Origin: a bacterium
GTDB lineage: Bacteria > Patescibacteriota > Minisyncoccia > 2-01-FULL-47-10 > JBBIMT01
Length of the DNA stretch: 60,779 bases
Reading direction: 5' to 3'
Assembly: GCA_037443185.1 (NCBI GenBank)
Contig: JBBIOV010000004.1
Location: forward strand, 1 to 60,779
Below are positions 5,082-30,277 of this stretch, one piece after another; the stretch's first letter is position 1; every line of letters begins with the position of its first letter. The notes under the pieces were generated by a model. The model searched no databases and was not told the DNA's origin. It saw nothing but the letters and a program-made list of their open reading frames with translations. The position numbers and the translations under genes were made by a program.

Positions 5082-5599
5082 GAGGCGGGAATTGGACAGC
5101 CGCTTTTGCGATTTTGTTGCAAAAGAGGAAAGTCCGAACACCTTGCGGCGAAGTCAAAAACAGTTAACAACATTTTTTAAATTTTTAATACCACTTGCCG
5201 CTACAAGTTAAAGATAAAACATTCAGACAGTGTTAATTGTTTTTGACTTCGCCGCGTGGCAGTCGCTAACAGCGACCGTCCTATCTGTTAAAAACAGAGG
5301 GGATAGGGAAAGTAGCACAGAAACAAAACCGCCCCCACACAAACGAGTTTGTAAATAAGCGTTTATAGAATAAAAATTACATTTATAAATAAACTCGTTT
5401 GATGAGGGGGTAAGGGTGAAAAGGCAAGGAGTAAGACCCTTGCCGTTTGTATGGCGACATACAAGCGCGCTAAACCCTGCCTGGTGCAACCTGCAATAAA
5501 TGCAGGGCTTGAGGCTGTTGGCAACAACAGTCCCAGATATATGGCTGTCATTTGCATTTTAAAATGCAAAACAGAATTCGGCTTATAGATTCCCGCCTC
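5082..5599 (+). ncRNA. rnpB: RNase P RNA with an extra long helix
   Basis: P1 GAGGCGGGAAT/ATTCCCGCCTC, GAGGAAAGTCC, AGTAGCACAGAAACAAAACCGCC, AAGGGTGAAA, GCTAAACCC...GTGCAA and ACAGAATTCGGCTTAT universal regions. Confidence 0.96.
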
Positions 5600-5692
5600 G
5601 AAAACTTTGAAATATTTTTTTAAAAACTTTTATAAAAGCTTTATTGCTATTACAAAAGTAGTAGGATTTAGGAGTGTAATTTTATTTACAAA

Positions 5693-26052: not shown

Positions 26053-26442
26053 TTACTCCATTCTTAAAATTTGTTTGACTTTTGCCAAAATTTCATCTGG
26101 AGTATAATGTGCTTTAACAAGAAAATCAGCTGCACCCATATTTAAGCCCCTTTGAATTTCTTCTTTTTGTCCTAAATTAGATAAAATTATAACCGGAACT
26201 TTTTGAGTTCGTGGGTCATTTTTTAATTCTTCTAAAACCTCAAAACCGTCTTTTTCAGGAATTATTAAATCAAGCAAAATAATCGCCAAAGATTCTTTTT
26301 TTGCAATTTCTAAGGCTTTTTGTCCATTTTCAGCTTGCAAAACATCAAAGCCAAAATCGCTCATTTTTTTAACAACTAACTCTCTTAAAAAATTATCATC
26401 CTCAACTATCAAAATTTTTATTTTTTCATTTTCCATTTTCAA
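26053..26442 (-). CDS. Stand-alone response-regulator receiver protein
   Basis: ILIVEDD, ILLD, DG, ILSN and FLVK receiver motifs. No output domain. Confidence 0.9.
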   Translation of the reverse strand: MKMENEKIKILIVEDDNFLRELVVKKMSDFGFDVLQAENGQKALEIAKKESLAIILLDLIIPEKDGFEVLEELKNDPRTQKVPVIILSNLGQKEEIQRGLNMGAADFLVKAHYTPDEILAKVKQILRME

Positions 26443-26474
26443 AAATATTAAATTTCATTTTTTCTCTATCTTAT

Positions 26475-26846
26475 CTATAAATATTTATTAATTTTTTCCA
26501 CTACTTCTTCTGGATTAATCTCAGCTTTTATGATAAAATCTTTGGCTCCAAGCTCAATCGCTTTATCAAGTTCAACTTTTTGTCCAGAATTTGATATAAT
26601 GATAATAGGAATTGATGATTTTCCTGTTTCTTTTAATTTTCTCATTACCTGAAACCCATCAAGTTTAGGCATTACAATATCTAAAAGAAGAAGGTGCGGA
26701 TTAAATTCATTAATTTTTTTTAACCCCTCTTCTCCATCAAAAGCTTGAGCTACTTCAAAACCTGTTCCTTTTAATTTTTTCGCCAAAAGATCAGAAAGTA
26801 TTATTTCATCCTCAATAATTAATATTTTTTTAAATCCGGTACTCAT
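26475..26846 (-). CDS. Stand-alone response-regulator receiver protein
   Basis: ILIIEDE, LLLLDIVMPKLDG, IISN, DFIIK. TTGACT-18-TATAAT lies 7 nt before the ATG. Confidence 0.9.
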   Translation of the reverse strand: MSTGFKKILIIEDEIILSDLLAKKLKGTGFEVAQAFDGEEGLKKINEFNPHLLLLDIVMPKLDGFQVMRKLKETGKSSIPIIIISNSGQKVELDKAIELGAKDFIIKAEINPEEVVEKINKYL

Positions 26847-27014
26847 ATTAAAAATTATAATATATTTTTTTAAGTTAAGTCAATGCTAAAAAACACTAAA
26901 GATTATTTAATATCAAATTTAAATCAAATTTAAAAATCGCCAATATTGCAAAACATCAATTGTTTCTCTCTATCATAAAACAACTAACACAAAAAAATTA
27001 TTCTTTAAAAAGTA

Positions 27015-27043
27015 TTGACAAAAAATAACTTATCTGCTAAAAT
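27015..27043 (+). promoter_or_regulatory. sigma70 promoter facing a non-coding hairpin
   Basis: TTGACA-17-TAAAAT with an extended -10 TG. No ORF downstream on the + strand. Confidence 0.7.
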
Positions 27044-27095
27044 AAATAGCTTAAGCAAGATAGGGAATGTTTTAAAATTTAATGTACTTTATACA

Positions 27096-27270
27096 AAAGA
27101 TATATTTTTTAGCTCGCAGGCAATTTTGGAGTATAAAATAGAACGTGGATAAGCCGGCTTTGCTTTTTAAAAAGTCAAATGCTGTCTTAATCCTTTAGTT
27201 TACTCCACCCTTGAGAGTTGTCCATACCTCAAGTCCTACCCTTTGCCTGCGAACTTAAGAATATATCTTT
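27096..27270 (+). ncRNA. ssrS: Probable 6S RNA (long irregular hairpin)
   Basis: 27096-27123 pairs with 27243-27270. Inner helices GGAGTA/TACTCC and GGAT-AAG/CTT-A-ATCC; side hairpin CTTGAG/CTCAAG; 175 nt; promoter upstream. Confidence 0.55.
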
Positions 27271-27286
27271 AACTTTATATCAAAAA

Positions 27287-30277
27287 TTAGAATCCTAGAA
27301 CTGTTCTAATCTCATCAAAAGAGGTAATGCCTTCTTTTACCCTCATTAATCCATCTTGTATAAGGGAACAAAAATTTTTTTGTTTCAAGTAATCTTTCAT
27401 TTGGGCTTCTGAAGCGCCTTGAGCTACTAAATTTTTTAACTGGCTATCAAAAAAGATAAACTCATAAAGGCCAATTCTTCCTAAAAATCCGGTAAATTGG
27501 CAATTAGCACAGCCTTTGGGATAATATAACACTGCCTCTTTATCAATAGCAATCTCATATTTTTTAAACAAATTGAGCTGTTCTACAGTAATCTTTTTTT
27601 CTTCTTTACATTTTGGACAAAGTCTCCGCACCAATCTTTGCGCCATTGCCATATTAATGGTAGCAGATATATCTTCTCTTGAAATGCCTAAATTTGCAAG
27701 TCTAAAAACTGTTCCAAGTGAATCATTAGTATGAACGGTTGACAAAACAAGATGTCCAGTTAAAGCAGCTTGGATAGCAGTTTGCGCTGTATCATAATCA
27801 CGAATCTCTCCGATCATCATAATATCCGGATCTTGTCTTAAAAGAGATTTTAAAGCGGTTTCAAAAGTATAACCACGTTCAGGGTCAATTTGTGTTTGAA
27901 TAATACCTTTAAGCTTATACTCAATTGGATTTTCAACAGTGATAATTTTTGTTGTAGATGAGTCAAGTCGGGCAAGCATAGCATAAAGTGTTGTAGTTTT
28001 ACCAGCGCCTGTCGGCCCGGTAGTCAAAATCATTCCTGTTGATTTTCTTAATTCATCGTAAATTAAAGGCAAAACTTCTTGCCTTATCCCCAATTCTTCA
28101 AGCTTGATAATTCCGATATCAGATCTTAAAAGCCTCATAACAACTGTTTCTCCGAATCCTCCAGGAATAATTGAAATACGTAAATCAAAAGATTTTTCTC
28201 CGGCAATAGTTGAAAATCTACCTTCTTGAATTTCTTGATAGACGCCTATTTTCATTCCTGATAATTGTTTGATTTGGGCTACAAGTGGTAAATAAAGTTT
28301 CTTTGGCAGTTCAGCAATCTGATGCAAAACTCCATCGATACGATAACGAATGATAAAAGTATCTTTTTGTGGCTCAAGATGTATATCAGATGCTCTCATC
28401 AAAAATGCTGAAGCAACAGACCATTGAATCATTTCTTCTAAAGAAGATTTCGCAAATTGCAAAGATAAAACTTCCGGATTTAATTTTTCAGGTGTCAAAT
28501 AATCTAAAATTTCAGAGTTAATTTTTAAACTGTTTGATAGAAGCGCTACAACCGCTTGGCCATAGAGTTGTTCAATAAATCTAGCATCTCCAGCCACTCT
28601 TTGCACTTCCTCTAAAGAAGTTTCTCCTTCTAAAACTTTCAATAGTCCGTGCTGAAGCATTGTAATCATTCCTTGCTCAATAGCAGTTTTTCTTAATTCA
28701 TAACTTGTCGCATCCTCCAAAATTAATTTTTCAATAACATCATCTATAGCAAACATCTCAAAAATACCAGTTCTTCCTTTATAACCAGTACCAAAACATT
28801 TTTCGCAACCTTTTGGTTTATAAACATTGCCAATCTCAGAAGGCGGCGTTATTTTTGACTTTGGCGAAATTAAGGAAAGAGCTTGGTTAATAGCTTCTTT
28901 CATCTCTGGTGATAAAACATATTGCTCTTTGCAATAGGGGCACAATTTTCTTACAAGTCTTTGAGCAATAACCAAAGATAAAGCTGGAGGAATTAAAGTC
29001 TTTTCCACCATTAGATTTCTAAGTCGTGGCACAGCTCCGGCAGCATCATTTGTATGTAAAGTCGAAAAAACTAAATGTCCCGTTAAAGCGGCATTTATTG
29101 CCATATTTGCGGCATCAGGGGATCTAATTTCTCCGACCATAATGACATCCGGATCTTGTCTAACTATAGCCGTAAGTCCCTTTTCAAAAGTATAACCTTC
29201 TTCGTTATTAACTTGAGTTTGCGATACTCCTTCCATCTGATATTCTATCGGATCTTCTATAGTAATAATTTTGATTTCTGGATTTTTGATAAATTCTATA
29301 CAAGCATATAAAGTAGTAGTCTTACCTGATCCCGTCGGTCCAGTAGTTAAAATCATTCCGTTAGGTTTTGAGATTTCTTTTTCAAGTAAAGCTACTTGAG
29401 TCGGATGCATTCCCATTAGCTTTAAATCATATTTAGGCACTGAAACCCCAAGTAGCCTCATTACTACTGCCTCTCCTAAAGCGCCAGGCAAAATTGAAAC
29501 ACGAACATTGATATCCTTTTTTTCTTTGTCTGATTTTTCAATTCTTAAAGTAAATCGCCCGTCTTGATTTATATTTTGAATATTTAGTTTTAAATTAGAT
29601 AATATCTTAATTCTAGAAATTATATAATGATGATGTTCCAAAGGAAAACGTACAACATCTTGCAACACTCCGTCAACACGAAATCTTACAGTCACTCCTT
29701 GTTCATATGGTTCAATATGGATATCAGTACATTCAGAAACAACAGCACCAATAAACATTTTTGTTAAAAAATCATTTACATTTTTGGATTCCTCTTTTAA
29801 CTGTTCTTCGAGCGTTTTTATCGTATCGATCAAACCACTTTGCTCCTGCCAAGCTTTATAATCAATCAAAAAAATTCCCTCGACCGTATAAAGTGGAGGA
29901 TGGTAAAGCTCATATAATCGCCAAGCTTTCTTTAAAGATGAGATTGAAGCCAACAAAAGAGTATAAGTTTTCTTTTGGCTTTGGAGTTCATCTAAAAAAA
30001 GTTTTAGTTCTGGATTATCTGGATCAAAAGCTGCAATAAAAAACTTATCTCCTAATCGCTGGAGAATCGCCATTAATCCTTTGCGAGCGCGCGCAAGCGG
30101 CAAGTAAACAAGACTATCAATATCGATTGGCGCAACATCAAGATTAATATAAGGAAGATTAAGTGCTTGAGCTCTGGCTTTAGTAATTTTTTCTTCTTCT
30201 AAGCGACCGATGCCGCTTAAATATTCTATCCTTTTTTCTTCTAAAACTAAATCGCTTTGACCAAGCTGAATAGACAT
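27287..30277 (-). CDS. pilB: PilB/GspE-family secretion ATPase with two tandem ATPase modules
   Basis: Two copies of DIH.EP...R.R.DG.L, GPTG[S/A]GKTTT, RQDPD..M.GEIR, TGHLV.ST.HTND and the tetracysteine motif. Confidence 0.92.
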   Translation of the reverse strand: MSIQLGQSDLVLEEKRIEYLSGIGRLEEEKITKARAQALNLPYINLDVAPIDIDSLVYLPLARARKGLMAILQRLGDKFFIAAFDPDNPELKLFLDELQSQKKTYTLLLASISSLKKAWRLYELYHPPLYTVEGIFLIDYKAWQEQSGLIDTIKTLEEQLKEESKNVNDFLTKMFIGAVVSECTDIHIEPYEQGVTVRFRVDGVLQDVVRFPLEHHHYIISRIKILSNLKLNIQNINQDGRFTLRIEKSDKEKKDINVRVSILPGALGEAVVMRLLGVSVPKYDLKLMGMHPTQVALLEKEISKPNGMILTTGPTGSGKTTTLYACIEFIKNPEIKIITIEDPIEYQMEGVSQTQVNNEEGYTFEKGLTAIVRQDPDVIMVGEIRSPDAANMAINAALTGHLVFSTLHTNDAAGAVPRLRNLMVEKTLIPPALSLVIAQRLVRKLCPYCKEQYVLSPEMKEAINQALSLISPKSKITPPSEIGNVYKPKGCEKCFGTGYKGRTGIFEMFAIDDVIEKLILEDATSYELRKTAIEQGMITMLQHGLLKVLEGETSLEEVQRVAGDARFIEQLYGQAVVALLSNSLKINSEILDYLTPEKLNPEVLSLQFAKSSLEEMIQWSVASAFLMRASDIHLEPQKDTFIIRYRIDGVLHQIAELPKKLYLPLVAQIKQLSGMKIGVYQEIQEGRFSTIAGEKSFDLRISIIPGGFGETVVMRLLRSDIGIIKLEELGIRQEVLPLIYDELRKSTGMILTTGPTGAGKTTTLYAMLARLDSSTTKIITVENPIEYKLKGIIQTQIDPERGYTFETALKSLLRQDPDIMMIGEIRDYDTAQTAIQAALTGHLVLSTVHTNDSLGTVFRLANLGISREDISATINMAMAQRLVRRLCPKCKEEKKITVEQLNLFKKYEIAIDKEAVLYYPKGCANCQFTGFLGRIGLYEFIFFDSQLKNLVAQGASEAQMKDYLKQKNFCSLIQDGLMRVKEGITSFDEIRTVLGF

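Follow-up and report, generated by a model that had tools for sequence, protein, structure and literature searches.

The window analysed here is a stretch of 60,779 nucleotides (contig JBBIOV010000004.1 of assembly GCA_037443185.1) from a member of the Minisyncoccia, a class of Patescibacteriota, and our subject is a gene within it that encodes two PilB/GspE-family ATPase modules in one chain, hereafter the tandem gene and the tandem protein. The window is chromosomal, with a G+C content of about 30%, and lies near dnaA-dnaN-polA. The neighbours of the tandem gene are glyA (serine hydroxymethyltransferase), a small RNA gene and two receiver (REC) genes. The tandem gene and the parts of its product are located as follows.

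27287..30277, minus strand: tandem PilB/GspE-family ATPase gene, 996 aa (open reading frame, Pfam, profile search)
29888..30277, minus strand: N1 domain, residues ~1-130, once per chain (weak MshEN/T2SSE_N match, PDB alignment, secondary structure of the AlphaFold2 model)
28589..29788, minus strand: ATPase module 1, residues 164-563 (envelope of the hidden Markov model; residue mapping to Geobacter PilB)
28451..28588, minus strand: inter-module linker, residues 564-609 (envelope offset, hhalign, model confidence)
27290..28450, minus strand: ATPase module 2, residues 610-996 (envelope of the hidden Markov model; residue conservation)

The gene is single and intact, with an ATG start three codons past an upstream in-frame stop, and the order of its product is N1, N2 and C-terminal domain (CTD), a 47-residue linker, then a second N2 and CTD. 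Family membership was judged with the models PF00437 (T2SSE), TIGR02538, TIGR01420 and PF00072. T2SSE matches the chain twice (E 7e-228, 755.9 bits against a gathering cut-off of 24.9), and a profile built from the tandem family places the module envelopes at residues 164-563 and 610-995. The Walker A box reads GPTGSGKTTT in module 1 (residues 313-322, nt 29312-29341) and GPTGAGKTTT in module 2 (residues 754-763, nt 27989-28018), and each half also carries a Walker B motif, a His box and a CxxC...CxxC motif. The Asp box is ITIEDPIEY in module 1 (338-346) and ITVENPIEY in module 2 (779-787), with the ENP triplet at nt 27926-27934. The original prediction, made from the letters of the window, had described two full modules with all of these motifs in a single 996-residue chain, and the open reading frame, the double T2SSE match and the motifs bear this out; both of its Walker A boxes are present as well, although its coordinates for them were one base off.

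Residues 1 to ~130 form a lone N1-type domain, which matches MshEN/T2SSE_N weakly (residues 39-122) and aligns with the N-termini of solved PilBs in the PDB. The second half of the linker is homologous to the segment that precedes N2 in module 1 (hhalign probability 99%), and profile comparison shows that the repeat unit begins some 30 residues ahead of N2, so that the units span ~133-563 and ~580-996. In the AlphaFold2 model of the chain (predicted local distance difference test, pLDDT, 85.7), both modules can be superposed on PilB 5TSH, each with a template-modelling (TM) score of 0.92 and a root-mean-square deviation of 2.6 Å, and the lowest pLDDT falls within the linker at residues 568-581. 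No two-module chain was found among PDB structures.

Compared with the PilBs of Geobacter metallireducens (5TSG/5TSH/6OLJ) and Myxococcus (3JC8), the tandem protein shares the N1-N2-CTD order, the Walker A box, the Asp box, the atypical Walker B with its catalytic Glu, the His box, two Arg fingers and the Zn tetracysteine, at about 40% identity and the same TM score per module. It differs in having a second N2-CTD after the linker, and thus one N1 per two modules, in being encoded outside a pilus operon and in that each module scores below the PilB equivalog cut-off. GspE of Vibrio (1P9R/4KSR/4PHT) is an equally strong match in sequence and fold, with the same motifs, but no type II secretion genes lie near the tandem gene, the tandem protein is two-module, and the lineage is without an outer-membrane secretin context (PMC6744442). 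PilF of Thermus (5OIU/6F8L), at ~890 residues the longest solved PilB relative and the one to which module 2 aligns best, owes its extra length to three N-terminal GSPII domains and has one ATPase module only. An engineered GspE-Hcp1 fusion reportedly enforces hexamers covalently, and is a different kind of fusion from the one described here.

Such a frame could be produced by an assembly chimera, or by a sequencing error that joins two neighbouring genes. A second assembly of the same genus, however, holds the tandem protein at 99% identity, and three further contigs from Logan and JGI assemblies hold it at 84-90%. In a large protein collection, over 115 clusters of 950-1050 residues match at 40-99% identity, drawn from NCBI, JGI, ENA and Logan assemblies, with some contigs of 0.6-1.27 Mb; those that carry names are Moranbacteria, Parcubacteria and Patescibacteria. 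The offset between the two envelopes is 46-48 residues in nearly all of 43 dissected tandems and 43-45 in one family. Because independent assemblies share both the architecture and the linker length, an artefact is very unlikely, to the point of being negligible, and the chimera that the original prediction had named as one possible refutation is contradicted by these homologues.

Conservation and origin of the two modules

Motif conservation was counted over 116 homologues and mapped catalytic residues were followed in a 38-sequence alignment, with the correspondence taken from an HMMER alignment to Geobacter PilB and the roles from McCallum et al. (PMC5424180). The mapped residues are the following.

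Geobacter T327: T315 in module 1, T756 in module 2; Walker A contact
Geobacter E357: E345 in module 1, E786 in module 2; Mg ligand, Asp box
Geobacter E395: E383 in module 1, E824 in module 2; catalytic Glu
Geobacter R271: R259 in module 1, R700 in module 2; Arg finger
Geobacter R286: R274 in module 1, R715 in module 2; Arg finger
Geobacter H413: H401 in module 1, H842 in module 2; His box
Geobacter H420: H408 in module 1, H849 in module 2; His box

All seven pairs are invariant in the 38-sequence alignment, as is the Walker A Lys of each module (K319 and K760). Across the 116 homologues, the Walker A box GPTG(S/A)GKT, both Glu residues of the Asp box, the catalytic Glu in GE(I)R and the TGH...H(T)N motif show little or no variation in either module, and the cysteines C446/C449/C491/C494 and C887/C890/C923/C926 occur in every sequence. 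On this mapping, both modules keep every residue predicted to serve ATP binding, Mg coordination, hydrolysis and inter-subunit sensing. That one module might prove degenerate across homologues, the other hazard named in advance, is contradicted by the same pattern.

The two halves are also alike in type. The PilB model scores 462.7 bits on the first half and 404.8 bits on the second, whereas the PilT model reaches 172 and 163 bits, short of the 319.1-bit cut-off of TIGR01420 (PilT/PilU), and the Zn motif is present in both. Judged by the Zn tetracysteine and by PilB scores that exceed the PilT scores, both halves clearly belong to the predicted extension type. The original prediction had proposed a motor acting in both directions, which sits poorly with two extension-type halves and with a separate PilT encoded in the genome.

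The sequence does contain asymmetries, and these bear on the possibility of a ring in which one module is catalytic and the other regulatory or structural, as in F1 alpha3beta3, with ENP marking the weakened module. Module 2 evolves faster: its mean pairwise identity is 48% against 54% for module 1, and it is the lower of the two in 97% of comparisons. This lineage carries ENP in module 2, and most second modules read RQNPD where module 1 has RQDPD. Nevertheless, the Walker A Lys, the Asp-box Glu, the catalytic Glu, the Arg fingers and the His-box His are invariant in module 2 over the 38 to 116 sequences compared. The Asp-to-Asn change in the Asp box is found in only 16 of the 116 second modules and also in 6 of the 116 first modules, and the substituted residue corresponds to Geobacter D354, which is not a Mg ligand. 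Since it is both rare and shared with first modules, ENP is best read as a lineage variant at a predicted non-critical position and not as a family mark of a dead module. Positions fixed differently between the two modules number none at 90% conservation, and only three, all conservative, at 75%. We therefore regard such a division of labour as quite unlikely; the ENP triplet reported in module 2 by the original prediction is real, but the unequal activity it was taken to suggest is not borne out, as the catalytic residues are kept in both modules.

We further note that the two-module form has a restricted distribution. A tandem form of ~1000 residues is found in 24 of 151 genomes of the class, the best match in the others being a single PilB of ~555 residues, and in three of 401 genomes sampled across the phylum, all three within this class. 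A search of genome contigs for related loci returned mostly single-module PilB/GspE of other phyla and one tandem, from Moraniibacteriota. Single, double and triple forms share one locus, in which a DHH-like gene, PilB and ruvB follow one another; downstream of the orphan or tandem pilB in relatives come an antisense small-RNA gene and then ruvB, yebC and ruvC. The triple form is a 1460-residue protein with three complete PilB modules (P0008, L235 5001-9383), seen at a DHH-linked locus on one JGI contig. The tandem protein is the two-module form of this orphan PilB, found across the class, which is Paceibacteria-like and includes Moranbacteria.

The DHH-family gene, encoding ~380 residues, lies directly upstream of the orphan or tandem pilB in many genomes, often overlapping it, and has weak Pfam matches (copies at L140 4604-5758, L235 3782-4909 and, in the genome studied here, contig C3 55019-56134). 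In nearly every copy the catalytic DHH and GGGH motifs have degenerated, pointing to a partner protein without catalytic activity.

A maximum-likelihood tree of 111 modules provides the phylogeny of each half that the original prediction had called for. All second modules, together with the third module of the triple, form one clade (Shimodaira-Hasegawa-like approximate likelihood ratio test, SH-aLRT, 98), first modules cluster with single forms (SH-aLRT 93), and in no protein do the first and second modules pair as sisters. In the triple, the second and third modules do so. The second module thus arose once, by internal duplication of residues ~133-563, and has evolved somewhat faster than module 1. 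A tree rooted on PilT renders module 2 paraphyletic, which we attribute to a long-branch effect, as without PilT the second modules again form one clade. A topology that derives module 2 from within the orphan-PilB lineage is not rejected by the approximately unbiased test (p 0.63) and fits slightly better. The simplest history has one old duplication, since module 2 forms one clade, followed by faster evolution of module 2, its loss in some lines, since single forms nest among first modules, and a later re-duplication of module 2 in the triple.

Separately, PilB-like frames of 920-970 residues that span two modules and carry one to four in-frame stops occur in four genomes (G140:C6:127162-129129, G144:C6:14687-16843, G048:C2:54669-56720 and G088:C17:168918-171410); they may represent neighbouring single genes, tandems that have split, or copies in decay.

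The receiver genes and their displaced kinase

The tandem gene is followed on its own strand by two receiver genes, as described at the outset of this work.

26475..26846, minus strand: REC_a, single-domain response regulator, 123 aa (Response_reg, PF00072, only; E 2e-24, 86 bits)
26053..26442, minus strand: REC_b, 129 aa from TTG, 127 aa from ATG at 26436 (Response_reg only; E 3e-23, 83 bits)
26854..26883, minus strand: promoter-like site TTGACT-18-TATAAT upstream of REC_a (11/12 match, consensus match only)

Both products are confirmed as receivers that carry no output domain. By eye from the translations, each has a complete phosphorylation pocket, with E12/D13, the phospho-acceptor D56, S85 and K107 in REC_a and D15/D16, the phospho-acceptor D58, S88 and K110 in REC_b. 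The window contains no kinase gene, again in agreement with the original prediction, and three histidine kinases are encoded elsewhere in the 652-kb genome, which has four REC proteins in total and no REC gene adjoining a kinase.

The adjacency of tandem gene and receivers is limited to the genus: besides the window, the second assembly and two contigs at 84% identity show it. No REC gene adjoins the tandem gene at any of 19 other tandem loci, and in a relative of 61% identity the place of the receivers is taken by ruvB. In sister families of the same taxonomic order, by contrast, the best matches of REC_a and REC_b directly follow the best match of a PAS-HisKA-HATPase kinase that this genome encodes on contig C3. 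The arrangements are as follows.

G122: overlapping genes for the kinase, REC_a and REC_b
G063: kinase followed by a frame with two RECs
G149: kinase followed by a single REC
Loci compared: L227 3123-5466; L228; L233 13051-15045; L236
Contig C3, 69890-71491 and 68835-69776, minus strand: the kinase and ruvB of the genome studied here

The C3 kinase lies 113-114 nt upstream of ruvB, both here and in an independent assembly of the same genus (G026), and so occupies the usual place of the tandem gene in relatives. The receivers thus represent the output half of a PAS-kinase-REC-REC operon that sister families keep intact. As in this genus the kinase now precedes ruvB and the tandem gene precedes the receivers, the two loci have reciprocally exchanged what lies downstream of them, a genus-specific change. 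The simplest route to both junctions would be a single inversion, given loci of opposite orientation. The adjacency of tandem gene and receivers is therefore secondary, and the C3 kinase is the likely cognate kinase of the receivers, as gauged from gene order in relatives. Indeed, a gap of 440 nt with an oppositely transcribed RNA gene separates the tandem gene from REC_a, and the promoter-like site within it suggests that the receivers may form a separate transcription unit with its own promoter.

These observations bear directly on the proposal, part of the original prediction, that the two receivers may serve the tandem motor as its own direct regulators. Three of the four REC proteins of the genome are encoded beside PilB-family genes, and a REC gene lies directly upstream of pilT, in the order pilB-REC-pilT-pilC, at 18 of 30 loci of the class from different families (L168-L197); the genome studied here has this order too (contig C13 4046-8663). 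REC_a and REC_b are moreover closer to the receivers of pilus loci (44-49% identical) than to each other (36-39%), and a preprint on Synechocystis reports response regulators that bind PilB1 (bioRxiv 10.1101/2021.06.11.447907). Set against this are the missing REC neighbours at the other tandem loci, ruvB in the 61% relative, the ancestral position of the receivers behind a kinase, and the gap, antisense RNA gene and separate promoter-like site that part them from the tandem gene; a dedicated role is accordingly improbable, the more so as the adjacency is confined to one genus. We consider instead that the receivers would be phosphorylated by the C3 kinase, would act by protein contact and may possibly act on pilus ATPases at large, without any particular tie to the tandem motor. 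Since pilB-REC-pilT is conserved in the class, a general action of receivers on PilB-type or PilT-type motors is plausible. In G149, a REC gene also precedes pilB-pilC of a second pilus locus (L233 6357-9572).

In other systems, PilG/PilH of Pseudomonas and the PixE/PixG-type regulators of Synechocystis PilB1 are likewise output-less receivers with a complete phospho-acceptor site, and the class resembles them in having such genes beside pilus ATPases. The present case differs in that Chp/CheA-type kinase genes are absent, the putative partner of the receivers is a PAS-HisKA kinase and no PATAN domain is present. For PilG/PilH, no direct contact with PilB has been reported (PMC11656802).

A conserved small RNA gene beside pilB

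The oppositely transcribed gene in the gap has the following coordinates.

27095..27270, plus strand: conserved structured small RNA gene, ~170 nt, antisense to and convergent with the tandem gene
27015..27043, plus strand: promoter-like site TTGACA-17-TG-TAAAAT leading into the small RNA (11/12 match, TG extension)

The promoter motif (TTGACA-17-TGnTAnAAT) is seen by eye on the same strand in the corresponding gaps of relatives, and a U-run follows the gene. The RNA folds with a z-score of -4.6, and covariation extends to every one of the 15 closing-stem pairs across 21 sequences of many families, in which 95% of cells are paired; none of 500 shuffles reached the values observed, and slid controls were about 40% paired. 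G-U pairs are confined to the strand opposite pilB. A covariance model (R1) matches 81 of 101 class genomes, usually once, and in almost every case immediately beyond the 3' end of pilB, orphan or tandem. No Rfam family matches the RNA, even at E values up to 10. The candidate identities of the 176-bp element as a miniature inverted-repeat transposable element or a plain terminator were ruled out by the class-wide covariation, the strand-specific G-U pairs and the mostly single match per genome.

The rearrangement in this genus parted the small RNA from ruvB, and it stayed with pilB; its linkage is therefore to pilB and not to ruvB. Searches of the apparently complete 652-kb genome at E values up to 1 detected neither 6S RNA (RF00013) nor the small signal recognition particle RNA (RF00169). 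Elsewhere in the window, a bacterial class A RNase P RNA lies at 5084-5601 on the plus strand, where it covers the full 367-position model over 518 nt with about 150 nt of insertions.

Ring assembly and cellular role

The genome contains two complete type IV pilus loci, each with its own single PilB.

Contig C11: pilus locus, pilB-pilC-pilins-pilM-N-O
Contig C13: pilus locus, pilB-REC-pilT-pilC-pilin-pilD-minor pilins

A check for pilT, recommended with the original prediction, found the gene on contig C13, and contig C7 encodes a 393-residue relative of PilB that lacks N1. As both pilus loci have their own PilBs, the tandem protein is an extra, third PilB-type ATPase outside both.

In PilB rings, the N2 of one subunit packs on the CTD of its neighbour, in the manner of beads on a string (PMC5424180). 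A two-module chain would thus fill two neighbouring ring positions, so that one six-module ring, with modules 1 and 2 alternating, would be closed by three chains. With three modules per chain, two chains would suffice. Such a ring would have only three N1 anchors, both module types would be expected to hydrolyse ATP, and the ring would drive a PilC-type platform like an ordinary PilB. The planar pseudo-hexamer gains indirect support from the module numbers, as one, two and three all divide six, and from the near-constant length of the linker. With one-, two- and three-module versions at one locus, a covalent pseudo-hexamer of three chains, as first proposed for this gene, would be the most economical reading.

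The serious rival is a stacked double ring, also raised at the outset, in which six chains would form a ring of first modules and a coaxial ring of second modules. KaiC, p97 and ClpB, which carry two P-loop modules per chain, build stacked rings, as do most known tandem P-loop ATPases, whereas F1 alpha3beta3 places two kinds of module in one ring; all of these belong to other superfamilies than the tandem PilB. AlphaFold2, for its part, does not place the modules confidently against each other. In contrast, N2-on-neighbour-CTD packing makes a covalent neighbour natural (PMC5424180), the three-module variant at the same locus would need a triple stack while fitting a ring of two chains with three modules each, and the near-constant 47-residue linker repeats the normal segment before N2. 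We consider stacking unlikely on balance.

Taken as a whole, we favour with moderate confidence the explanation that combines an orphan two-module PilB, a six-module ring of three chains and receivers acquired by exchange. Several observations weigh against it. The lower conservation of module 2 makes some functional asymmetry possible. Single modules fall below the NCBIfam equivalog cut-offs for PilB and GspE: neither half reaches the 675.65 bits of TIGR02538 (PilB), and the whole chain attains 860 bits by summing two modules. The predicted TM score is 0.50 for the whole chain and 0.65 for a fragment comprising the first CTD, the linker and the second N2, so that the relative placement of the modules is of low confidence. 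The gene order behind the inversion model comes from fragmented assemblies, and the DHH-like gene has moved too (to C3 55019-56134), which implies more than one event. Finally, no pilC, pilM, pilin, platform or alignment gene was found beside the orphan or tandem pilB in about 40 loci, the sole exception being L127, where a further PilB-like gene lies directly downstream. Because of the cut-offs and the lack of an adjacent pilus gene, a role of the tandem protein in pilus extension is an assumption.

The orphan PilB lineage of the class may also be something other than a spare pilus motor. The orphan PilB, with one to three modules, might form with its coupled DHH-like partner and the RNA a separate engine, for instance in DNA uptake or handling upstream of RuvABC, and the tandem ring might be an obligate trimer with three-fold alternation of non-equivalent active modules and three N1 anchors. 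The DHH-like partner is translationally coupled to the orphan pilB, and the small RNA is antisense, of housekeeping type and still linked to pilB after the rearrangement. Such a ring would match a trimeric platform, as has been reported for PulF (PMC10790770). We hold this possibility to be doubtful.

Full-text literature searches returned no description of a tandem, fused or double PilB/GspE, and neither a 2024 review of PilB regulation nor papers on Patescibacteria pili mention such an architecture; database records name the homologues simply GspE/PulE family or PilB. The tandem protein is thus a conserved and apparently undescribed variant in one class of ultra-small bacteria, built from well-understood parts.

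PilB-family motors are thought to be homohexamers that cycle through two-fold symmetric states, and the hand-over between subunits is usually studied with mixed or engineered rings. Covalently linked, diverged ring positions, in a family with one-, two- and three-module versions at a single locus, would allow Walker or catalytic mutants at single positions without subunit mixing, and the tandem protein would be a ready-made tool for the study of firing order and ring symmetry. The explanation of the receiver adjacency by rearrangement guards against a regulatory reading of it and singles out the probable cognate kinase. That a third PilB-type ATPase is retained in small Patescibacteria genomes, outside their two pilus loci, points to a further function.

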